From positions 206,115 to 270,114 of the forward strand of contig JAKAJD010000001.1 in NCBI GenBank assembly GCA_021813945.1: a DNA stretch of 64,000 nucleotides. The letters run 5' to 3'. The DNA comes from a bacterium (lineage in GTDB: Bacteria > Patescibacteriota > Microgenomatia > Curtissbacterales > GWA2-41-24). This document shows, piece by piece, positions 13,529-55,665 of this stretch (positions are counted from its first letter, which is position 1; each line of letters opens with the position of its first letter). The notes below the pieces were generated by a model. It worked only from the letters and a program-made list of their open reading frames with translations, searched no databases and was not told where the DNA came from. Made by a program: the position numbers and the translations under genes.

Positions 13529-16500
13529 ATGTCTAAATTCGTCCATCTTCACGTACACAGTGAATATTCTCTCTTAGACGGTCTTTCTAAAATTCCCAAA
13601 ATGGTAACTCAAGCAAAAATTTTGGGGATGCAGCATTTAGCAATAACAGACCACGGCGCAATGTACGGAGCGGTGAAATTTTATAAGGAATGCAAAAGCC
13701 AAGGTTTAAATCCCATCTTAGGTTGTGAGATGTATATTGCGAAAAGAAGTCTCAAAGATAAGGAAGCCGGCAAGGATAACGATTATCATCACCTAACCGT
13801 TTTAGCAAAAGATAGGGAAGGCTATGTCAACTTGATGAAGCTTGTGACAATAGCCCAGCTAGAAGGGTTTTATTATCGCCCAAGAATCGACAAATCAACT
13901 CTTGCCAAACATGCAAAAGGTCTTATGGCACTTTCTGGTTGTAACTCATCGGAGATTTCCAAGGAATTCATATCCAGAGATCTAAAAGCTGCCAGAAAGC
14001 TAGTCGAAGAGTATCAAGCTATCTTCGGTAAAGACGATTTTTACTTGGAAGTTCAAAGGCACGAATTTTCCAAATTTCAAGCTGCTCACGACAAAGGCTC
14101 CTATATCTACAACGAATTAGAAAGAATGCATCAGGAAGAACAAAAAATCATCGAAGGGGCCAAAAAATTATCAAAGGAAATGAGGCTTTCGCTAATAGCC
14201 ACAAATGACATCCATTACGTTATGCCACAAGATGCAAGCGCACAAGACGCCATTGTCTGCATTCAAACCGGCAAAAATATTCAGGACGAAAAACGCCTCA
14301 GAATGATAGACTCCCCTACTTTTTTTCTAAAAAGTGACGAAGAAATGAGAGAACTTTTTCCGGATATCCCAGAATCGATAGATAACACGGTAAAACTTGC
14401 AGAAAAAGTCAAAATTGATTTGACATTAGGAAAAGTTGCCTTTCCAAAGTATCAAGTTCCAAACCAAAAGTCCGCAGAAGATTATCTTAGGGATCTTTGC
14501 TTCGATAGAATTAAATCAAAAGTAGAAAAAGTAACTCCGGAGATTAAAGAGCGGTTAGATTATGAACTGTCCGTCATTTCCAAAAAAGGCTACTCGGCTT
14601 ATTTTTTAGTTGTGTCGGATTTTGTCAATTGGTCTCGCGAAAAAGGAATTATCTCAACAACTCGGGGGTCTGCATCCGGAAGCCTTGTTTCGTACGCTCT
14701 GGGAATAACGACTGTCAACCCGCTTTCATTTAAGCTGCCATTTGAAAGATTTTTAAATCTTTACAGACCGACATTACCAGATATTGACGTAGATTTTGAA
14801 GACAAAAGGCGCGACGAAGTGATCCAATATGTGCGCGAAAAGTACGGCCATGAAAAGGTCGCGCAAATTGGCACTTTCGGAACAATGATGGCCAGAGCAG
14901 CTGTTCGCGATGTCGCCCGCGTCTTAGGTTGGCCTTATTCAAAAGCCGATCGTATTGCCAAAATGATTCCCTTCGGAGCTCAAGGATTTCCTATGTCACT
15001 CGATCTGGCCAAAAAACAAAATAGAGATCTTGGAAATTTATACAACGATGATTCTGAAGTTAAAGAGCTTTTGGATTTAGCGGAAAAAGTAGAAGGCAAT
15101 GCCAGGCACGTTTCAGTCCATGCGGCGGGTGTCGTGATAGGTCCGGACGATCTATCCAATTACACACCACTTCAAAAAGAAACCACCGGAGAAAAAATCA
15201 TAACTCAGTACGATATGCATGATGTTGAAGATGTAGGTCTTGTAAAAATGGATTTTTTGGGAATCAGAAACCTTTCTATTCTGGGTCAGGCAGTGAAAAT
15301 TGTGCAATCGGAAAAGAATATCAAAATCAACCTCACAGATATTCCGCTTGACGACAAAAAAGCCTTTGATCTTCTTGCAAAAGGTGAAACGATGGGCCTT
15401 TTCCAGCTAGGCGGATCGGGAATGACGAGGTATTTAAAAGAACTTCGACCGACAACGGTCTTTGACATTATGGCGATGATTTCGCTTTTTCGCCCGGGAC
15501 CGATGAATTCAATCCCGGAATTTATCGAAAGGAAAAACGATCCGAAAAAAGTTAAATATTTCGACCCAAGAATGAAAGATTACCTGGATTTGTCTTATGG
15601 CGTCATAGTTTACCAAGACGATGTTCTTTTAACTGCTATCAACATTGCGGGATATACGTGGGAAGAGGCAGATAATTTCCGAAAGGCAATGGGTAAAAAA
15701 ATTCCGGCAGAAATGAGCAAGCAGCGCGAAAAATTCCTAGACGGAGCTATAAAAAACGGAATGACCGGAGAAAAATCGGAAGAGCTTTTTAAACTTATCG
15801 AGCCATTCGCGGCTTATGGTTTCAACAAAGCTCATGCCGCATCGTATGCAATTATTGCCTACCAAACTGCCTACATGAAAGCCAATTACCCGGTTGAGTT
15901 TATGACAGCTGTAATGACCGCTGAAGCCGACGATACGGACAAAATCGCCTCGGCTGTAGATGAGTGTGCCAAAATGGGTATCCTCGTTCTTCCGCCGGAC
16001 ATTAACGCATCGCACACAGGTTTCACTATTGAAAAAGTGCAAAAAACGAAAAAAGACGGTATCCGATTTGGGTTTTCCGCCATAAAAAACGTAGGTAAAG
16101 CCGCAATCGAGGCCATCATATCCGAACGTGAAGCACACGGACTTTTTAAATCTTTAGACAACTTTGTATCAAGAGTTAATTTAAGAGCAGTGAACAGGAA
16201 GACTTTAGAGAGTTTAATTAAAGCAGGCGCTATGGACGGTTTCGGGAAACGAAATGCCATGCTTAAAATTCTAGACGATATCAAAGCGCAAGGCACATCT
16301 CTTTCTAAAACCATAGCCGAAGGCCAGGGTACATTATTTGGTGAAGAAGAGCTGGATTCCAAAACCGTTATACCCAAATCAATGAGCTCTCTTTTAGAAT
16401 CAACCGAAGAGGCACCGAAGGAAGAAATACTTTCCTGGGAACGAGAGCTTTTAGGCTTTTATTTAACCGAACATCCGCTTGCAAATGTCTCAGAAAGAAT

Positions 16501-27469: not shown

Positions 27470-27979
27470 TTATTCTTTATATGGGCCAAATTCCAAATCG
27501 CCAGCTAAAATAGACCTCATAATACCAACCCCGTTAAGTGAAGATAGGCCTCTAGGAATTGAGCGTTCTGTGTTTATTAAATTTAGATCATGAGCAATTC
27601 TTAAAAATTCTCTATCTGGATTACGAGTGAAATCTAAATGTCCGGGCTGGCTCGTAAGTCGTAATATCATCAAATCAACGAGTAGTAACCCAGCATCGAT
27701 GTCATCCACAATGGATACTCGTTTGAGCATAGACCTGACAAGTGCATCGGGATACTCTCTTCTAGTCAGACACACGCTCTTTGAAGCTTCACGCAAAGAT
27801 TTAATTTGAGAAGTGAATGGGTGAAACTTTTCCGCTGCATCACGCCAAAGCTGTTCTCTTGACTCAAAATCATTTGAGGGGTCCATGCCTGCTAATTGGT
27901 CATCAATGTAAAGCTGCAAGATCTCTTGGGCGGCTGTTGGTAGCAATGCAAGTTCTTCTGGTGTCAAATCTCGTTCCAT
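27470..27979 (-). CDS. hypothetical protein (169 aa), adjacent to tRNA-Glu
   Basis: ORF only. No recognisable motif. Confidence 0.4.
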   Translation of the reverse strand: MERDLTPEELALLPTAAQEILQLYIDDQLAGMDPSNDFESREQLWRDAAEKFHPFTSQIKSLREASKSVCLTRREYPDALVRSMLKRVSIVDDIDAGLLLVDLMILRLTSQPGHLDFTRNPDREFLRIAHDLNLINTERSIPRGLSSLNGVGIMRSILAGDLEFGPYKE

Positions 27980-28033
27980 ATTGGGCTGGAATTATACAAA
28001 AGATCAGAAGATAAATCAACTATAGGTCTTAAG

Positions 28034-31985: not shown

Positions 31986-33266
31986 TCACGCCTTTTTCAA
32001 GAAATTTATCCTGTAGCTTTTGTCTCCAAAATAACCGGTCACTTCCGGCATTACAATTGGCATCCCCAAAAGCTGTCCAGGGAAAACAGTATAATGGCCA
32101 AAACGGCTGTTTATCCTATCAACCGACGATACTAGTCTTACACGCCTTCTCTCTTCATCAAAAAGCGGTACAGGTTGGTGTCTGCTCGCTGTAAGCATTC
32201 CAAGCGTAACTCCGCAAAAAATTATGTTTTTAGGTTGCCACTCGTCAGCAATCTGCTTACAAACCCTAAAAAGGTCTTGGCCTGTATTGATGTAACTTGC
32301 CAAGGTTTTGTGTCCATACCAGGATTTAGCCTCAGCATCGCTTTTTAAGTTCCCAGACCATTGCCTTGGCGAGGTTCTAAGACAAAACCCTACGTAACGC
32401 CCACAAAGCCTCATTGCACGGGCTTTTTCGGCGGCTTCCTCGCATAAATTTCGAGTAACTTTATAAATCTCAGATCTGCTTTCTAAAATCCTGTGTGCGG
32501 TATAAGTTCTGCCGACCGATTTGGCGTCTGGAATAGAATCAAGCCCAACTAAAGGACTGTTATCGATCCCTCTGGCAACATTATAAAGGTGTAAAGACCA
32601 ATAAGGCCCAAAATGTTTATATAAAAAGGGGAGTGATTGTTTTCGCAATTTGGCAAAATCATTTATCCCCAGGCTCGTTAAATGGCTATAAAGGCCCCAG
32701 CCGAGTCCGCAAATCTCCATCAATTTGGATTTGTCCAAAACCTCAAGCATATTATCGTGTGTAATCCAAAAAAGGCCATCAGGCTTGATTTGTTCAGAGG
32801 CAAGCTTAGCCAAAAGCTTATTGTGGGAAATTCCAACAGAACAAGTTAAATAATCACCAACTTCTCGCAGTCTCTTTTTAATATCAAATGCAATATTAAA
32901 AGCATTACCCCAGAACTTTTCAGTTTCAGTTACATCTATAAAACATTCATCCAGTGAAAAAACTTCGCAAAGCGGCGAATAACTTGAACAGATATCAATA
33001 AATTTCCGGCTTATATATTCGTATTTTGAAAAATCCGCAGGTACGAGAATAATTTCGGGGCAAAGTTTTCTAGCGTCATATGTTCTTGAACCTGTTCCAA
33101 CGCCTTTACGTTTGGCTTCAACAGAGGCCGCGATAATACAGCTTCTACCACGGGCTTTAACAACGCCAACAGGCTTCCCCCGGAGCGCAGGATTAGCTTG
33201 CTGTTCGGCCGTTGCAAAAAAGCTGTTTAAATCCGCATGGATGATAACTCGCTTGTCATTTTGCAT
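31986..33266 (-). CDS. dinB: DNA polymerase IV (Y-family translesion polymerase, DinB/UmuC-like)
   Basis: VIIHADLNSFFATAEQ...SCIIAASVEAKRKGV is the Y-family palm. 426 aa. Confidence 0.9.
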   Translation of the reverse strand: MQNDKRVIIHADLNSFFATAEQQANPALRGKPVGVVKARGRSCIIAASVEAKRKGVGTGSRTYDARKLCPEIILVPADFSKYEYISRKFIDICSSYSPLCEVFSLDECFIDVTETEKFWGNAFNIAFDIKKRLREVGDYLTCSVGISHNKLLAKLASEQIKPDGLFWITHDNMLEVLDKSKLMEICGLGWGLYSHLTSLGINDFAKLRKQSLPFLYKHFGPYWSLHLYNVARGIDNSPLVGLDSIPDAKSVGRTYTAHRILESRSEIYKVTRNLCEEAAEKARAMRLCGRYVGFCLRTSPRQWSGNLKSDAEAKSWYGHKTLASYINTGQDLFRVCKQIADEWQPKNIIFCGVTLGMLTASRHQPVPLFDEERRRVRLVSSVDRINSRFGHYTVFPGQLLGMPIVMPEVTGYFGDKSYRINFLKKA

Positions 33267-33276
33267 TTAAAAACGA

Positions 33277-33603
33277 TTAAACTTTCTCTGTCACCTTTTT
33301 GACCTTCCATATATAATTATTTGCATTGTATTCGAGTTCAAAATTTGCAGTATCCGAAGCGCAAACCAAATCGACCATCCGTGAATCACCAACTCGCCTA
33401 GAAGAGGAAAAAATTACCTTATCAAACTTTACAAAGCGCCGGTTCCAATTCATTGCAATAGGGAAAATTCCTTGATCAAAAAAAGCCCAAACTTTTACCT
33501 TATCATCAACCTCAGTATCCATAATCTCTTTATACCCAAATAAAACCCGAAAATCAAGTGGCAATTTAGCTAGATCTGTAGTATTCTCTAAATCCTTAGC
33601 CAA
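33277..33603 (-). CDS. hypothetical protein (108 aa), first gene of the dinB operon
   Basis: ORF only. 10-nt spacing to dinB. Lies 8 nt from the divergent rhomboid gene. Confidence 0.45.
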   Translation of the reverse strand: MAKDLENTTDLAKLPLDFRVLFGYKEIMDTEVDDKVKVWAFFDQGIFPIAMNWNRRFVKFDKVIFSSSRRVGDSRMVDLVCASDTANFELEYNANNYIWKVKKVTEKV

Positions 33604-47096: not shown

Positions 47097-47717
47097 TTAA
47101 TTCTGGTACTTTCTAATAACTGCAACACACTTACCCTGTATCGTTACATTTTTGGCAAATATTGGCTGCATAGTAGTATTTGAAGGCTGCAACCTAACTC
47201 TATCCTTTTCCTTAAAGAAACGTTTTAAAGTCACAACCCCGTTTTCTATCATCGCGACGACAATGTCCCCGTTATTCGCGTGGTTTGTCTCCTCAATAAC
47301 TACAAAGTCTCCATCCAAAATTCCGTCATCCACCATAGATTCTCCCTTAACTTGCAAAACATAAGATTTTTTGTTTGCGGAAACCATATTTGCGGAAACT
47401 GCAAAAGTTGCATTAGGGTCGGTATAAGGTTCGATTGGAGAACCAGCAGCAATGAAACCCGAAAGAGGCAACTCAATGCCCTTAACAATTTTTCCGATTT
47501 TTTGGTCTATCAGCTCTATGCTTCTGGACACTCCACCGGATTTTTTGATCAAACCCTTTTTCTCTAGCGTCTGTAAATGCTCATGGACTGTAGCAAGCGA
47601 TTTAACCCCAAGTTTTTTAGCAATCTCAACTAAAGTCGGCGCATGTCCGTACTTTTCAATATAGTCGTTAAGATAATCTAAAATTTGTTTTTGCCTTTTG
47701 TATAAAACTAAACTCAT
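47097..47717 (-). CDS. lexA: LexA repressor (S24 peptidase)
   Basis: N-terminal wHTH (LTKRQKQIL...GHAPTLVEIAKKLGVKS) and C-terminal KGESMVDDGILDGDFVVIEE...VTLKR (Ser/Lys dyad). ATG at 47717 (MSLVLYK...). Confidence 0.9.
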   Translation of the reverse strand: MSLVLYKRQKQILDYLNDYIEKYGHAPTLVEIAKKLGVKSLATVHEHLQTLEKKGLIKKSGGVSRSIELIDQKIGKIVKGIELPLSGFIAAGSPIEPYTDPNATFAVSANMVSANKKSYVLQVKGESMVDDGILDGDFVVIEETNHANNGDIVVAMIENGVVTLKRFFKEKDRVRLQPSNTTMQPIFAKNVTIQGKCVAVIRKYQN

Positions 47718-47740
47718 GTTATGATATATATATACCAAAT

Positions 47741-47759
47741 AAAACCCGAAATTGTCAAG
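47741..47759. promoter_or_regulatory. 19-bp element AAAACCCGAAATTGTCAAG, copy 1 (contains TTGACA on the lexA strand)
   Basis: Exact duplicate of 47797-47815. Lies in the lexA/uvrB divergent promoter region. Confidence 0.45.
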
Positions 47760-47796: not shown

Positions 47797-47815
47797 AAAA
47801 CCCGAAATTGTCAAG
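47797..47815. promoter_or_regulatory. 19-bp element AAAACCCGAAATTGTCAAG, copy 2
   Basis: Exact duplicate of 47741-47759. A TATAAT for uvrB lies at 47839-47844. Confidence 0.45.
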
Positions 47816-47855
47816 AATCAAATCTGGCGGATTTAATATATAATGTACGATTGAT

Positions 47856-49850
47856 ATGAAATTTGATCTAAAAGCAACATATAAACCAACCGGTGACCAG
47901 CCTCTAGCAATTGAGAAACTAGTTGATGGCCTAAGTAATAACTATCAACACCAAACGCTGCTTGGCGTAACTGGTTCCGGAAAAACTTTCACAGTTGCCA
48001 ATGTTATCCAAAAAATCCAAAAGCCAACGTTGGTTATCAGTCACAACAAGACGCTGGCAGCCCAACTCTACCAGGAATTCCGCGAATTCTTCCCAAACAA
48101 TGCGGTATGCTATTTCGTCTCTTATTACGACTATTACCAGCCCGAAGCCTATCTTCCCGCAACAGATACATATATAGAGAAAGAAACCGAGGTAAACGAG
48201 GAGATAGACAGGCTCAGGCTAGCAGCAACTACGGCACTTTCAACCAGAAACGACGTTATCGTAGTAGCTTCCGTCTCCGCAATCTACAATCTTGGGTCAC
48301 CTGAAGAATATAAAAACGCCCGCGTCGATCTAAAAGTCGGCCAGGCGTGGTCAAGACTCGACCTTCTCACAAATTTTGCCAGGCTTCAATATGAACGAAA
48401 CGATACGGATTTTGCCAGGGGAACCTACCGCGTCCGCGGCGAAAACGTAGAAATAATCCCTGCTTACGAAAATAATGGTTTAAGGCTCGCTTTCTCAAAC
48501 GATACAATCCGAAAAATAGAAACTATCCACCCCGTGACCGGGAAAATCATCAAGTCTCATGAAGCTTATGCCCTCTATCCGGCAAAGCATTATGTAACAG
48601 CTGATCCAACAAACGAAAACGTCATCTCCTCAATAAAAGACGAACTAAAAGCCCAGCTTAAATTCCTGGAATCAAAAGGGAAAGTTTTAGAAGCGCATCG
48701 CCTCAAACAACGTACGAACTACGATTTGGAAATGATAAAAACGCTGGGTTATTGCAAAGGTATCGAAAATTACTCCCGCTACTTTGACGGCAGAAAACCG
48801 GGCGAGGCACCATTTTCCCTAATTGAGCATTTTCCTAAAGATTATCTTTTAGTAATCGACGAGTCGCATATGACTATTCCTCAAATCCAGGGAATGTATA
48901 ACGGCGACCATGCCAGAAAAACCATGTTGGTTGATTTCGGCTTTCGGCTTCCGTCTGCATTCGACAACCGGCCGCTTAAGTTTGAAGAGTTTGCTCGCAG
49001 AATAAATCAGGCAATTTACACGTCGGCTACTCCGGCCCAATATGAAATATCCATATCAAACCAGGTAGTCGAGCAACTTATTCGTCCTACGGGATTAATA
49101 GATCCCCAAATATCTGTCCGCAAAACAGAAGGCCAGATAGAAGATCTAATAACAGAAATTGAAAAAAGAGTACAAAAACACCAACGGGTACTGGTCACCA
49201 CTCTCACAAAACGTATGGCCGAAGAACTTTCAAAATATCTCGAGGAAAAGAAAATTCGCGTAACCTACCTTCACAGCGAAATAGAAACACTAGACAGAAC
49301 GGATATTTTAGACGATCTTAGGCTTGGGAATTACGACGTTTTAGTTGGCATCAACCTTCTGCGCGAAGGTTTGGATCTTCCCGAAGTTACCCTCGTTGCC
49401 ATTCTAGACGCAGATAAAGAAGGTTTTCTCCGGTCGGAAACGTCACTTATCCAAACAATGGGCAGGGCTGCACGCCACGTAGACGGATCTGTAATTCTAT
49501 ATGCAGATACAGTCACCAAATCAATGGATAGAGCAATAAAAGAGGTCACAAGAAGAAGAAAAATCCAGATGGACTATAACGCCAAACACAACATCAAGCC
49601 CCGTTCAATCGAAAAACCTATCCGCGGAAAGCTAGTTGAGCGTCAAAAAGAAGAAGATAAAAAGCTAATCTACAGGGACACAGTAATAGCCAGTGTTATG
49701 GAAAGGGCCAAAGAAGGATCAATTTTACCTGAAGACAAAACAAAACTTATAAAATTTCTAAATCGCGAAATGAAATCAGCGGCCCGCGTCCTCGATTTCG
49801 AAAAAGCGGCGTATCTGCGTGATCAAATCATAGAACTCAAAACAAATTAG
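47856..49850 (+). CDS. uvrB: excinuclease ABC subunit B
   Basis: GVTGSGKTF Walker A, beta-hairpin and helicase motifs, and a C-terminal UVR domain (...AAYLRDQIIELK). Confidence 0.95.
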   Translation: MKFDLKATYKPTGDQPLAIEKLVDGLSNNYQHQTLLGVTGSGKTFTVANVIQKIQKPTLVISHNKTLAAQLYQEFREFFPNNAVCYFVSYYDYYQPEAYLPATDTYIEKETEVNEEIDRLRLAATTALSTRNDVIVVASVSAIYNLGSPEEYKNARVDLKVGQAWSRLDLLTNFARLQYERNDTDFARGTYRVRGENVEIIPAYENNGLRLAFSNDTIRKIETIHPVTGKIIKSHEAYALYPAKHYVTADPTNENVISSIKDELKAQLKFLESKGKVLEAHRLKQRTNYDLEMIKTLGYCKGIENYSRYFDGRKPGEAPFSLIEHFPKDYLLVIDESHMTIPQIQGMYNGDHARKTMLVDFGFRLPSAFDNRPLKFEEFARRINQAIYTSATPAQYEISISNQVVEQLIRPTGLIDPQISVRKTEGQIEDLITEIEKRVQKHQRVLVTTLTKRMAEELSKYLEEKKIRVTYLHSEIETLDRTDILDDLRLGNYDVLVGINLLREGLDLPEVTLVAILDADKEGFLRSETSLIQTMGRAARHVDGSVILYADTVTKSMDRAIKEVTRRRKIQMDYNAKHNIKPRSIEKPIRGKLVERQKEEDKKLIYRDTVIASVMERAKEGSILPEDKTKLIKFLNREMKSAARVLDFEKAAYLRDQIIELKTN

Positions 49851-49866
49851 CATCGGAAATTAAATT

Positions 49867-49876
49867 TGTGTATAAT
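49867..49876 (+). promoter_or_regulatory. TGTGTATAAT, a strong -10 (TG-extended-like) ahead of the unknown gene between uvrB and uvrA
   Basis: Read directly. It lies 8 nt upstream of ATG 49885. Confidence 0.4.
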
Positions 49877-49884
49877 TCCAACCC

Positions 49885-50712
49885 ATGCTGGAACGCTACG
49901 GCATAGAGTATAGCCCCGACGGCAAGCTTCAAAAGCTAGACGCCCAAAGAGCTTTTGAAGTTGTCAGAGAAGATATTAGTGGGCTCTTTCAAATCCAAAC
50001 ACATGGGGCGGTTGTTGAATTCACAAGTCCGGAGGGATACGCACAAAGACTCAGAGACTTACTTGCAGCAAGAAACATAACAGATCAAGCCGATATTGAC
50101 GCAACTGTTAAAAGAATTGGGGAAGCAACAGAGATAGGTGGTGTAACAGCCTACTGTGGAGATCTTGACTTAGCATTAGAATGGAGGCCCAGGTATATTA
50201 TCTTTTTAAGTAATGCGTCAAAAATAACACACTTACCAGCAATACTAGCAGAGGAAGTAACACACGGTGAACACGAAGCCTATATGATTGATGATGTGGG
50301 GATGTCGTACGCCGATTACCAAACATCTTTTCACGCAATCTCAAAAGAATTTTTGGGTTATCTTGGAAGAAAAAGGGTCATTGAGATTATCGGTCTGGAA
50401 GGCAGATATGGAACAACACTTGACGCATCAAGAGACTTAACGGAGAACGAGTGGTCACACTTTATTGGTTACTGGATTGCAGACGACCTCTTAGATAAAG
50501 GCAAAAAGTTACCTTATAGAGAACTTTTCCACGCAACAAGCGAAGAAGAAATGTGGCATATTTTAAAAACAGCAATGGGAGATGATTTCAACTTTACCTT
50601 AAATTTTGCGGAGAATTTAAATTACGAGAAACTACAAGAAGCGCTAAATTCTATAATAAGGAGAAATAAAGCGGCCGATTATATAAAGCTCAACTTCAGG
50701 CAGATAAATTAA
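49885..50712 (+). CDS. hypothetical protein (275 aa) inserted between uvrB and uvrA
   Basis: ORF with good coding texture. No TM helices. Contains ...ITHLPAILAEEVTHGEHEAYMIDD... No recognisable family. Confidence 0.5.
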   Translation: MLERYGIEYSPDGKLQKLDAQRAFEVVREDISGLFQIQTHGAVVEFTSPEGYAQRLRDLLAARNITDQADIDATVKRIGEATEIGGVTAYCGDLDLALEWRPRYIIFLSNASKITHLPAILAEEVTHGEHEAYMIDDVGMSYADYQTSFHAISKEFLGYLGRKRVIEIIGLEGRYGTTLDASRDLTENEWSHFIGYWIADDLLDKGKKLPYRELFHATSEEEMWHILKTAMGDDFNFTLNFAENLNYEKLQEALNSIIRRNKAADYIKLNFRQIN

Positions 50713-50869
50713 CCGGAAAATCAATTTCTATGTCAGGTTTAATCACTTGAACAAATCTTGCCAAAGGTGATAAAATTTTCCCTCAGTGTACTAATCTTGT
50801 TTCGGTAAATATTCGGGTTTACACTGAAAAGCATCGACGAAGTGTTGCCTTATAAATTGAAATGTTCAT

Positions 50870-53755
50870 ATGGACAAAATAATCATAAAAGGTGCAAGGG
50901 AAAACAACCTTAAAAATTTAAGCGTTGAAATCCCAAAAAATAAGCTGATTGTCTTCACCGGCATTTCCGGTTCAGGTAAATCATCTTTGGCTTTCGACAC
51001 AATCTACGCAGAAGGCCAACGCCGTTACGTCGAATCGTTAGCCTCGTACGCTCGTCAGTTTCTTGGTGTGATGGACAAACCCGACGTTGACTCAATTGAA
51101 GGCCTTTCCCCAGCAATCTCGATCGATCAAAAATCAACTTCCCATAACCCTCGTTCAACTGTAGGTACAGTCACGGAAATTTACGACTACCTTAGACTTT
51201 TATTCGCAAGAGTTGGTCATCCACATTGCCCGATTTGCGGGCGTGAAATTGCCCATCAGTCTGCAGCACAAATAGTCGACGAAATTCAAAAATTACCACA
51301 ACAGACAGGTTCTAAAAACTTTAAAATCTTGCTTCTTTCTCCTGTTGTCAAAGACCGCAAAGGAGAATTCACACAACTTTTCAGGGATCTTTTGAAAAAG
51401 GGCTACCGCGAAGCCAGAATCGACGGTCAAATTAGAGAAATCGATGAAGATTTTACCCTCATCAAAACTAACAAACATACAATAGAAGTAGTTATGGATA
51501 GGCTGATAATCCCTGCGGAAAAGCAGCGCCTTTCTCAGTCAGTCGAGCAAGCGCTGAAGTTATCAGAAGGATCCCTTATAGCCTCTGAGATCCTAGATAA
51601 AAGCTTCGAAATTCAGAAATATCCCAAAGAGTTAAAGGACCATCTTTTTTCCGAAAAATTCACTTGTCCTGTAGATAACATTTCTTTGCCAGAAATAGAA
51701 CCTAGATCATTTTCTTTTAATTCACCTCATGGCGCCTGTCCAAAATGTAATGGCTTAGGGGCAATTAAGAAAGTCGATCCTAAATTGGTCATCAATCCAA
51801 ACCTAACCATAGCAGAAGGCGCAATACTTCCTTGGGCAAGGATAGTTGGAAGCGATTCATGGTCCTGGAGGGTGTTAGAAACAGTCTGCAAAGAAAACAA
51901 CATAAACATAAACATCCCTTTCCGTGACCTAAATCAAAGCGCTCGAGAGCAAATCTTAAACGGTACAGGCGATAAGCTTTATCGAATCAAGGGCCCAAAC
52001 AGGTTTGGCAAAATCGTGACTTGGGATAGCAATTTTGAAGGCGTAACAGAAAACATTGAGAATAAATATTCCCAGACAGAATCAGATTTCGTCAGGCGCG
52101 AAATTGAACGTTTTATGAGGCAAGAAGAATGTGAAACTTGCGTGGGAACCAGGCTCAAGCCGGAAGCACTTTCGGTGACAATCGAGAAAAGATCGATAGC
52201 TGACATCTCGCTCCTGAGCATACAGGATTTCTTTGCTTGGTTAGAAAAACTCCAAAAGAACGAAACAAATATTCTGTCAGAACGAGAAGCCCTGATTGCC
52301 AAACCTATCTTAAAAGAGCTGATAGCTCGAACAAAGTTTCTTGTCGACGTAGGTTTAGATTACCTAACAATTGCCAGGTCGGCTGTAACCTTGGCCGGTG
52401 GGGAAGCACAACGCATTCGTCTGGCGTCACAAATTGGATCTGGTCTTTCAGGCGTTTTATATGTTTTGGACGAGCCCTCAATTGGCCTTCACCAAAGAGA
52501 CAATCAACGCCTTATATCAACATTAAAAAAACTTCGCGATTTGGAAAACACGGTTATTGTAGTCGAACACGATAGCGAAATGATGTTTGCATCCGATGAA
52601 ATTTTGGATTTCGGACCTGGTGCGGGCGAACACGGGGGGCAGATAATTTCTCAAGGTTCCCCTCAAGCGATAACTAAGGACACAAATTCTTTAACTGGAA
52701 AATATCTATCTGGCAAAAAGGAAATCAAGCTGCCTAAAAGACGCATTGTTTCCAAAAGCGGCTTAGCGCTAGATCTTATAGGTGCAAAAGAACACAACCT
52801 CAAAGATATAGACGTGACATTTCCCCTGGGAAATTTAATTTGTGTAACAGGTGTATCTGGATCTGGCAAGTCGACATTAATCCATGACGTTTTGTATAAC
52901 GCGATAGCTGCCGAACTATACACGTCAAAAGACAAACCAGGTGCTTATAAGTCACTAAGGGGCTTAGAAAATGTTGATAAAGTGATTCTTATAGATCAGT
53001 CACCAATTGGCAGGACACCACGCTCTAATCCTGCGACCTATACCGGTGCCTTTACGCATATTCGCGAACTGTTTTCTCAAACAACGGACGCTCGAATCCG
53101 CGGCTACAACCCCGGACGATTTTCTTTTAACGTCAAAGGTGGCCGCTGCGAAGCTTGCGAAGGTGAAGGCCAGGTAAAAATAGAAATGCAATTTCTTCCA
53201 GACGTTTATGTTGATTGTGAAGTATGCGGGGGCAAAAGGTATAACGAAGAAGCCCTAGAGGTTCATTACAAAGGGAAAAATATCTCAGAAGTTCTCCAAA
53301 TGACAGTGGAAACCGCTTTAGAGTTTTTCCAAAACATTCCGCAAATTAAACAAAAACTGGAAACAATAAACGATGTAGGTCTTTCTTATATCCATTTAGG
53401 CCAGCCTGCGCCAACACTCTCTGGCGGGGAGGCTCAACGGGTAAAACTGGCAACCGAGCTATCCAAAAAGGCAACAGGCAGAACTATTTATATTTTAGAC
53501 GAACCAACAACCGGGCTTCATTTTGCCGATATCGAGAGGCTGCTCAAGATTTTGGATAGATTAGTTTCAACAGGGAACACTGTTATAGTCATTGAACATA
53601 ACATGGATATAATTGCCAATGCAGATTGGATAATCGATTTAGGACCGGAAGGCGGAAACAATGGCGGCCAGGTAATTGCAGAGGCAACACCGCAAGATTT
53701 GGCTAAAATTCCTGCGTCTTATACAGGGCAATTTCTCAAAAAGTATCGCACTTGA
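50870..53755 (+). CDS. uvrA: excinuclease ABC subunit A
   Basis: Two ABC ATPase modules ([12 protein letters not shown] and [10 protein letters not shown]), LSGGEAQR signature motifs and Zn-finger Cys clusters. Confidence 0.95.
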
Positions 53756-53787: not shown

Positions 53788-55665
53788 GTGAAATCGCTTG
53801 CCCGATTTTTACTGATCCTCCCGCTTTTCTTGCTGTTTACTTATTGCTTTCCAAAGCCTGCATATGCCGAAGGTGAATTTCAAACAGATTATCAGGTCAA
53901 CTACCAAGTAGGAACTGATGGAAAAACCGATGTTACCCAAAACATTACATTAACCAATAAAACTGCCAATTATTATGCAGATAAATTTGAACTGAAAATC
54001 GGTTCAACTAAAGTTACAAACGTAAAAGCTTCGGACGATGCTGGCAATCTAGAAACTAAGGTAAATTTTGACAATAACGTTACAACAATAGCGGTAAAGT
54101 TTAATCAAAGAGTCATAGGTGAGGGTAAAAAACTAAGTTGGAATCTTTCTTATTCATCCAACGAATTGGCAACAAAATCCGGCCAAATTTGGGAAATATC
54201 AATCCCAAGACTGGCATCATCGCAAGATATGGGAAACTATAATGCAACATTGGCAATCCCGCGAATTTTTGGGCCAATGGCTTTCACTACCCCAACACCC
54301 ATATCGACTCAGCAAAAGTCACAATCCCAGGAATTCGCATTCACAAAAGATCAGCTTTTGCAATCAGGAATTTCAATGTCCTTTGGAGAAAAACAAGTAT
54401 TTGCCTTTAAACTCAATTACTATCTCCAAAATAACAATGTAACATCACAAACATCAACAATCACACTTCCACCTGATAACAATTACCAGAAGATTGTTTT
54501 AGAAAAAATAGACCCGAAGCCTCAAGATGTAACAGTAGATGAAGACGGAAACTTTATCGCAAAGTATAAGCTTTCACCAAAGCAAAAATTAAATATTACA
54601 ACGCAAGGTTATGTAGAAGTTTTTTCCAAGCCATTCAGAAATATCGACTCACTGAATCAAGATCAGAAAAACGAATATCTGCAGCCGCAAAGATATTGGG
54701 AAACAGATAACGGTTTTATTAAAGACAAAGCAAACGAGCTTAAAACCCCCAAGCAAATATACAATTTTGTTTCATCATACCTTAGCTATAGCAACGACCG
54801 TCTTGCCCAGCAAACCATAGAAAGGAAAGGGGCAGCTGCTGCAATCCAGACACCCAAAGATTCAATTTGTATGGAATTTACAGATTTGTTTATTGCCATA
54901 GCAAGAGCTGCAAAAATTCCGGCCCGAGAAGTCGAAGGTTATGCCTTCACCCAAAATGAGCGCCTTAGACCGCTTTCGCTGACATTAAACAGTGGTGATG
55001 TACTTCATGCCTGGCCAGAATATTGGGATGACAACTTAGGGTGGGTTCAAGTAGACCCGACTTGGGGGTCAACTTCTGGTGGCTTGGATTACTTCAATAA
55101 ATTAGATTTTAATCACATAACATTTATCCAAAGGGGCATTTCATCAACAGATCCCCAACCGGCAGGTGCTTTTAAAGATAAAACAAAGCTCAATCAAAAA
55201 AGCGTTGATGTTTCTTTTGCTGAAGATCTACCCACGCCAACCTCAAGCGTCCAACTGCAACTTCTTACTCCCGAAACAATCTATTCCGGTATACCAACTA
55301 CAGTTACAGCCAACCTTATTAATTCTGGCTCGACGTCGATTATCAAGCAAAAACTCACCCTTAACTCGCAGATTTTGTCAATTACATCGCAAAACCCGCT
55401 TCTTATCAACTTGCTTCCGCCGTTTGCAAATAGAAACGTCAAGTTTGATGTGGAAACTAAAGGGAAGCTTAATCAGCAAAGAGATAATCTGATTGCCGGA
55501 TTTGCTGACTCACAAATTTCCAAACCAATACTCATAAAACCGATTTACGAAATAGCCTATTCATTGCCTTTTTTGGCATCACTACCCATTGCAATAGCAT
55601 TACTATATTTAGGCTTGCGATTTTACAATAAGCATCACAAGAAATACCGCAGAGCACAATATTAA
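53788..55665 (+). CDS. secreted, C-terminally membrane-anchored transglutaminase-like cysteine protease domain protein
   Basis: Signal peptide (LLILPLFLLFTYCFPKPAYA). Transglutaminase-core triad context: DSICMEFTDLF (Cys), LHAWPEYW (His), VQVDPTWG (Asp). C-terminal TM LPIAIALLYLGL plus a basic tail. Confidence 0.75.
   Translation: MKSLARFLLILPLFLLFTYCFPKPAYAEGEFQTDYQVNYQVGTDGKTDVTQNITLTNKTANYYADKFELKIGSTKVTNVKASDDAGNLETKVNFDNNVTTIAVKFNQRVIGEGKKLSWNLSYSSNELATKSGQIWEISIPRLASSQDMGNYNATLAIPRIFGPMAFTTPTPISTQQKSQSQEFAFTKDQLLQSGISMSFGEKQVFAFKLNYYLQNNNVTSQTSTITLPPDNNYQKIVLEKIDPKPQDVTVDEDGNFIAKYKLSPKQKLNITTQGYVEVFSKPFRNIDSLNQDQKNEYLQPQRYWETDNGFIKDKANELKTPKQIYNFVSSYLSYSNDRLAQQTIERKGAAAAIQTPKDSICMEFTDLFIAIARAAKIPAREVEGYAFTQNERLRPLSLTLNSGDVLHAWPEYWDDNLGWVQVDPTWGSTSGGLDYFNKLDFNHITFIQRGISSTDPQPAGAFKDKTKLNQKSVDVSFAEDLPTPTSSVQLQLLTPETIYSGIPTTVTANLINSGSTSIIKQKLTLNSQILSITSQNPLLINLLPPFANRNVKFDVETKGKLNQQRDNLIAGFADSQISKPILIKPIYEIAYSLPFLASLPIAIALLYLGLRFYNKHHKKYRRAQY

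Follow-up and report, generated by a model that had tools for sequence, protein, structure and literature searches.

The uvrB and uvrA genes of a Curtissbacterales bacterium (Patescibacteriota; assembly GCA_021813945.1, contig JAKAJD010000001.1, positions 206,115 to 270,114) are separated by a gene for a 275-residue protein, here called X, within the 64,000-nucleotide stretch of DNA that constitutes the window of this analysis; window positions are counted from its first letter. X is probably an accessory enzyme of the cytoplasm, a metal-dependent hydrolase with a zincin (gluzincin-like) fold and most likely a peptidase; a metal, a substrate and roles for individual residues can be proposed for it. 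It would belong to a small, undescribed family harboured by ultra-small bacteria of the candidate phyla radiation (CPR) and by DPANN-type archaea. On the same reading, the location of the gene reflects a tolerance of insertions between uvrB and uvrA, not a role in excision repair. What is new would thus concern the protein family, which varies a familiar fold, rather than DNA repair.

X is a real gene under selection, as indicated by an 88% identical ortholog with a pN/pS ratio (nonsynonymous to synonymous) of 0.12, by 35 family representatives and by a structural model with a pLDDT (predicted local distance difference test) of 93.7. The initial annotation described an open reading frame (ORF) wedged between uvrB and uvrA with lexA nearby, and this arrangement agrees with the gene calls. 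Its starting point, 49851, is the base directly 3' of the uvrB stop codon; the ATG of X lies at 49885.

Predicted fold and conserved residues

X is an acidic protein (isoelectric point, pI, 4.99; family median 5.2) which, to judge from its sequence, is soluble and cytoplasmic. Transmembrane helices are absent, as annotated at the outset: the maximum Kyte-Doolittle mean over 19 residues is 1.15. Searches of X against Pfam, NCBIfam, PADLOC, PHROGs and the sequences of the PDB (phmmer) returned nothing credible, and matches to Replitron_HUH (E 0.078) and to an archaeal winged helix-turn-helix domain (E 0.19) were rejected as noise. A Pfam scan of all 37 members revealed no family common to more than one of them, and when the family, whole or reduced to its core, was used as a profile against the PDB, only chance matches appeared, such as uL18 at E 0.27. 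The description of X as devoid of any recognisable domain therefore holds at the level of sequence, but not at that of the predicted fold.

The model is very confident (predicted template modelling score, pTM, 0.92) and is predicted to adopt a zincin, gluzincin-like fold, with a mixed beta-sheet and its backing helix, an active-site helix and a helical lower subdomain. The closest fold match is the M30 peptidase lugdulysin, with a value of 12.2 over 199 aligned residues. It is followed by ERAP1, leukotriene A4 (LTA4) hydrolase and other M1 enzymes (9.4-10.2), Dcp (8.8) and thermolysin (8.3), and at a greater distance by MATCAP (6.3), Spartan (5.7) and projannalysin (5.7). The best matches are thus general peptidases, not SprT or IrrE.

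Conservation, counted over 37 aligned family members, brings out a striking core. The peptide AEEVTHGEHEAYMIDD, quoted in the initial annotation and confirmed here as residues 122-137, belongs to a long helix on which E123 (36/37), E124 (34/37), H127 (34/37), E129 (36/37) and H130 (35/37) make up a nearly invariant EExxHxEH motif; many distant members also carry a histidine at position 134. Other conserved positions are F149 (37/37), E155 on the next long helix, F215, A217 and W224 (37). Ahead of the motif helix runs a beta-strand, residues 104-109, which, by analogy with zincins, would be the edge strand along which substrate is bound. The succession of strand, active-site helix and glutamate-bearing helix is the order known from gluzincins (MEROPS clan MA). 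As the conserved residues of X lie on two consecutive long helices after a beta-strand, as in gluzincins, they are best read as a zincin site in which EExxHxEH stands in for HExxH: the first histidine ligand would have become glutamate, a Glu-His pair would have been added, and E155, the candidate equivalent of the glutamate on the gluzincin 'glutamate helix', would be the third ligand. Placed on a helix, E123, H127, H130 and H134 would share one face.

A small family in bacteria and archaea

A word-indexed search detected only four close relatives of X; an exhaustive search brought to light the 35 family representatives among 1.84 billion proteins, and a profile search of a large protein collection added only P0036. 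The locus scan used a closer alignment (A3), A2 being too diverse, and counts of the family in genomes and metagenomes are lower bounds. Among species-representative genomes two relatives are detectable, both archaeal: one in an Aenigmatarchaeota metagenome-assembled genome and one on a 791-kb contig of an uncultured archaeon. Their presence suggests an exchange between CPR bacteria and DPANN archaea.

The genomic surroundings of the family are heterogeneous. The neighbours of the archaeal genes are unrelated to uvr genes. Elsewhere the family is found beside a PaaX-like gene and mnmA, or in the company of a metallo-beta-lactamase (MBL)-fold hydrolase, thioredoxin, a uracil-DNA glycosylase (UDG) and feoB, and a 42% identical homolog has a SET-domain gene in its neighbourhood.

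Variable content of the uvrB-uvrA spacer

The closest named matches of the window's UvrB, at approximately 75-77% identity, are from Candidatus Curtissbacteria. The local gene order (enolase, iPGM and further genes up to Nramp, lexA divergent from uvrB, the gap, uvrA, a transglutaminase-like gene and uvrC) is kept in five further relatives. The gap itself is a hotspot whose content varies between Curtissbacteria lineages: the window, L004 and L006 have X, L006 being the most distant of the loci (75% identity at the UvrA N-terminus), and L018-L022 lack it although their flanks are conserved (Table 1). In two of these five loci the gap is empty and in the other three it accommodates unrelated genes; tblastn detected no remnants of X in any X-less gap. 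X is thus patchily distributed, via repeated loss or transfer. The synteny that the initial annotation proposed to look for is not a stable trait of the lineage, and absence from the gap in close relatives is what that annotation had named as refuting its idea.

A comparison between the window and L004 hints at exchange in this region. The synonymous measure pS of X is 0.49 +/- 0.04, against 0.69-0.82 for all six neighbours (lexA, uvrB, uvrA, the transglutaminase-like gene, uvrC and Nramp), and over positions 49400-50620 nucleotide identity stays at ~0.85 across the 3' portion of uvrB and on into X, then drops sharply at the 3' end of X. The stretch of higher identity may represent a recombination tract.

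The transglutaminase-core protein encoded at 53788-55665 deserves a separate mention: all the Curtissbacteria loci examined have its gene between uvrA and uvrC, a link to the uvr genes far more stable than that of X. The protein has 625 residues, and its sequence suggests a signal-like segment at the N-terminus and a hydrophobic one at the C-terminus.

Transcription signals and a candidate LexA operator

Gene X is preceded by a promoter-like site of its own, whose -35 hexamer (TTAGCA, 49847-49852) overlaps the uvrB stop codon and is separated by an 18-nucleotide spacer from the -10 hexamer TATAAT (49871-49876). The sequence TGTGTATAAT noted at the outset is indeed found at 49867-49876, and its TATAAT stops 8 nucleotides short of the ATG; because its TG is shifted by one base from the proper register, a true extended -10 was rejected. 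The -10 is kept in L004 and L006 though the surrounding spacer diverges. No Shine-Dalgarno sequence was detected upstream of X. Since the -10 ends so close to the ATG and no such sequence is present, the X messenger is probably leaderless or nearly so.

This arrangement is widespread in the window. An exact TATAAT 4-14 nucleotides before the start codon is found in 4 of 46 genes, uvrB and X included, against approximately 0.17 expected from the frequency of TATAAT in the window, and a -10-like hexamer ending in the same interval is present in 12 of the 46; a Shine-Dalgarno-like sequence precedes just six. Gene starts in the window therefore look largely leaderless. The strong -10 that the initial annotation attributed to X is real and conserved, but ordinary here, because a promoter next to the ATG is a common gene-start style of this genome. 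The start region TGTATAATTCCAACCC of X has an almost identical counterpart, TGTATAATTCCAGCCC (27983-27998, minus strand), ahead of a gene for a 169-residue orphan protein with no Pfam match (27470-27979, minus strand). Homology between the two genes was considered on account of this likeness and rejected, as the proteins are unrelated.

The promoter of X stands apart from those of the SOS-type genes in the window. The pattern TTCGG-N6-TTYGG occurs at four exact sites against 0.42 expected, a number that none of 100 shuffles reached. Three of these sites are at SOS-type genes, namely lexA, the operon of a Y-family polymerase and uvrA, and the fourth is intragenic (16404-16419). Upstream of uvrA the pattern is conserved in L004/L005 and L018-L022; upstream of lexA it is conserved in L004/L005 and L018-L021, the best site in L022 having one mismatch. 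These observations make TTCGG-N6-TTYGG a candidate LexA operator for Curtissbacteria, which may help to define their SOS regulon. At the X promoter the operator match that the initial annotation proposed to look for failed to materialize: in all three X-bearing lineages the best site has three mismatches, the mode of the background. A further sequence upstream of X, CGGAAATT, resembles part of the lexA repeat; it was dropped for want of conservation in L004 and L006.

The promoter-operator block of uvrA is kept with or without X, and uvrA is therefore independent of uvrB transcription. Because uvrA possesses its own promoter and operator, the spacer can tolerate varied inserts. Two other elements at uvrA were not retained: a palindrome over its start, TGTTCATATGGACA, shows no conservation in L004 or L006, and the apparent hairpin arms around the leader element were set aside, as the direct-repeat reading accounts for the conservation.

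Several side observations concern the same regulatory sequences. The lexA-uvrB spacer contains a 19-nucleotide direct repeat, AAAACCCGAAATTGTCAAG (47741-47759 and 47798-47816), which on the lexA strand reads as a TTGACA -35 followed by TTTCGGG, half of the operator-like element. There are two copies in the window and one in L004, as if part of the promoter and operator had been duplicated; no copy was found near X. The Y-family (IMS) DNA polymerase gene (31986-33266, minus strand) is preceded by an ORF of 81 residues with no Pfam match (33280-33522, minus strand), with which it has the operator-bearing promoter in common; the small protein may be an accessory subunit of a mutagenesis cassette. 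In L021 the called start of uvrA (9398) falls within the conserved operator-like element (…TTCGGTAAATG), and the alignment of the UvrA protein begins 21 nucleotides past it: the gene call probably starts too early.

Table 1. Coordinates of gene X, its coding motifs, neighbouring genes and regulatory elements in the window, and state of the corresponding gap or family locus in relatives (coordinates of relatives are those of their own loci).
Feature	Location	Strand	Description
X promoter-like site	49847..49876	+	best promoter-like match in 10-kb region, 10/12 positions
Gene X	49885..50712	+	275 residues; ORF call
Codons of residues 104-109 (YIIFLS)	50194..50211	+	beta-strand ahead of long helix; Y104 35/37
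Codons of E123-E124-V-T-H127-G-E129-H130	50251..50274	+	EExxHxEH motif, on 25-residue helix 114-138
Codon of E155	50347..50349	+	35/37; helix 151-168, motif EF-G-LG
lexA	47097..47717	-	divergent from uvrB
uvrB	47856..49850	+	context; Pfam families of called gene; 100% match to P0041
uvrA	50870..53755	+	context; gene call
Operator-like TTCGGGTTTTATTTGG	47735..47750	-	inside lexA promoter spacer
Identical 16-mer copy of TTCGGGTTTTATTTGG	33536-33551	-	promoter of small ORF and Y-family polymerase operon
Operator-like direct repeat TTCGGTAAATATTCGG	50801-50816	+	uvrA leader
uvrA promoter	50747-50776	+	TTGAAC, 18-nucleotide spacer, TG-n-TAAAAT; promoter scan
uvrA promoter-operator block	50747..50816	+	downstream limit of X cassette
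L004			UvrB 92% identical to window; gap: X (88% identical)
L018	8996-9095		UvrB 90%; gap empty (100 nucleotides)		
L019	9002-9160		UvrB 81%; gap empty (159 nucleotides)
L020	9045-9413		UvrB 81%; gap: 122-residue orphan ORF, no Pfam match
L021	9046-9315		UvrB 79%; gap: 89-residue orphan ORF, no Pfam match
L022	9004-9834		UvrB 78%; gap: opposite-strand type IV pilin-like gene (N_methyl)
L006			UvrB 67% (C-terminal segment only); gap: X (53% identical)
L010	1048-1815		archaeal X family locus, DPANN-type archaea
L011	5995-6828		archaeal X family locus, DPANN-type archaea

Weighing the interpretations

A number of observations weigh against X being an accessory zincin-type hydrolase in an insertion-tolerant slot. 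HExxH, a defining feature of zincins, is found nowhere in X, and the first motif position is glutamate in 36 of the 37 members. No sequence or profile search linked any peptidase to the family. The sole local hhalign match to thermolysin, whose sequence was verified against the PDB, pairs ILAEEVTHG with VVAHELTHA and is not significant (probability 0.16%); its register (E123 on His142, E124 on Glu143, H127 on His146) can serve as a hint only. With Foldseek, X had no significant match in either the PDB or BFVD, in BFVD none at E<=0.001. The convergence of E123, H127, H130 and E155 on one site is a proposal based on the placement of the helices in the model. As to location, the uvrB-X-uvrA order is retained even in the distant L006, and the 34 nucleotides between the uvrB stop codon and the ATG of X contain no terminator-like site, so that co-expression of X by read-through from uvrB is possible.

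An unlikely alternative is that X is a zincin-fold pseudoenzyme, or a metal- or ligand-binding protein, in which the stripe of glutamate and histidine residues serves for binding and peptidase chemistry has been lost. The systematic loss of the first canonical zinc ligand would fit this idea, as would the disposition of E123, H127, H130 and often H134 on one helix face, more reminiscent of a metal-binding stripe than of a single catalytic site; a few members without E124 or H127 retain E129-H130, and an 'EEXXH' motif finds no mention in the literature searched. Yet E124, the equivalent of the catalytic glutamate, and E155 are conserved in 34-35 of the 37 members, and, when the family is read alongside thermolysin, the small residue preceding the motif and the uncharged ones within it look as they do in zincins.

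The idea that X is a protease recruited into the uvr cluster, trimming DNA-protein crosslinks in the manner of SprT, Wss1 or Spartan to leave UvrABC a remnant that it can remove, or regulating the damage response as IrrE and ImmA do, appears rather improbable. It can draw on the occurrence of X between uvrB and uvrA in three lineages, one of them at only 53% identity, on possible SOS-driven read-through across the short gap, and on a locus that appears to be under LexA control. Against it, closer relatives with lexA, uvrB, uvrA and uvrC intact have the same gap without X; in others it is filled by unrelated genes; homologs at or below 42% identity, archaeal ones included, are not near repair genes, save one that is two genes from a UDG; and the X promoter is without operator. 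Moreover, the family is acidic and without an added DNA-binding domain, the top fold matches lie elsewhere, and LexA here carries its own S24 self-cleavage domain. The suggestion in the initial annotation of a new component of the DNA-damage response falls with these observations: a repair-linked protease role finds no positive support, and the position of a gene in a repair cluster is here no evidence of a role in repair.

It is equally improbable that X is cargo of a mobile or defence element, or a gene spread by recombination with the uvrB and uvrA flanks as landing arms. The variable content of the gap, the patchiness of X relative to the divergence of its flanks, the occurrence of the family in both bacteria and archaea, and the low pS with its plateau of identity would all be in keeping with such a history. 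However, PADLOC gave no match, the best PHROGs match has an E of 0.29, and no relatives were found in viral contigs or, at the threshold given above, in BFVD. X is a single gene without integrase, partner gene or flanking repeats, its GC content (0.405) is close to that of the window (0.395), and purifying selection together with a host-type promoter suggests a domesticated cellular gene. Of the earlier proposal of a selfish or defence insertion riding an SOS-type locus, the lineage-variable insertion stands and the selfish or defence character is unsupported.

Very improbable is the boldest version, in which SOS-driven read-through from uvrB would, in a subset of Curtissbacteria, make X a new repair-associated metalloprotease, for instance trimming DNA-protein crosslinks ahead of UvrABC, with a non-canonical Glu/His centre (EExxHxEH plus Glu) in which zinc may give way to another metal. 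A weaker version, stripped of the repair link, would see in the family a new zincin lineage at the level of MEROPS, marked by a His-to-Glu ligand switch, confined to CPR/DPANN episymbionts and exchanged between the two domains.

Proposed mechanism and significance

If X is the accessory zincin-type hydrolase favoured here, the cleft that separates the helical C-terminal subdomain from the N-terminal alpha/beta subdomain would receive a peptide, along the edge strand of the latter. E123 and H127 of the long helix and E155 of the following one would hold a metal ion, and E124, as general base, would activate the water bound to the metal, the part played by the glutamate of HExxH. H130, joined in many distant members by H134, could provide an extra or alternative ligand from the same helix face. 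The metal may not be zinc, because the first histidine ligand is replaced by glutamate. At the level of the genome, X, with its operator-less promoter of the leaderless type, would occupy an insertion-tolerant slot that extends from the uvrB stop codon to the operator-bearing promoter of uvrA.

Should the fold and the residue mapping hold, the family would represent a zincin lineage not described before, with glutamate systematically in place of the first canonical zinc-binding histidine and with a Glu-His pair added, and hence a natural test case for the rebuilding of a zincin metal site. An orphan family would also gain its first annotation, in CPR and DPANN organisms with proteomes that abound in proteins of unknown function.

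Comparison with known systems

The closest structural relatives, the M30 peptidases of MEROPS (hyicolysin and lugdulysin; PDB 7bb8), share 12% sequence identity with X, a relationship undetectable by sequence. These enzymes are secreted and carry HExxH, whereas X is cytoplasmic, smaller and equipped with EExxHxEH. SprT, Wss1 and Spartan, like ImmA and IrrE, have the zincin core in common with X and would supply the functional analogy that the damage-response idea needs. In contrast to X, proteases of the SprT/Wss1 type combine an HExxH core with a DNA-binding region: X is acidic, is without HExxH or an extra domain and has no SprT-like match in Pfam. MATCAP/KIAA0895L and minigluzincins such as projannalysin are known to retain two histidine ligands; no sequence relationship between them and X was found.

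The most instructive comparison is with the thermolysin-type gluzincins (M4) and with the M1 aminopeptidases and leukotriene A4 hydrolase, whose core of edge strand, active-site helix and conserved-glutamate helix is like that of X. The local alignment with thermolysin, not significant in itself, places AEEVTH of X on AHELTH, and the first zinc-binding histidine of M4 and M1 enzymes would correspond to glutamate in X. H127 and E155 are 28 residues apart, compared with a spacing of 20 in thermolysin, and four residues past E155, at position 159, X and its relatives have tyrosine, serine or histidine, unlike the aspartate of M4 and M1. Set beside these enzymes, X is further characterized by the invariant E129-H130 pair and by a C-terminal beta-alpha-beta unit.
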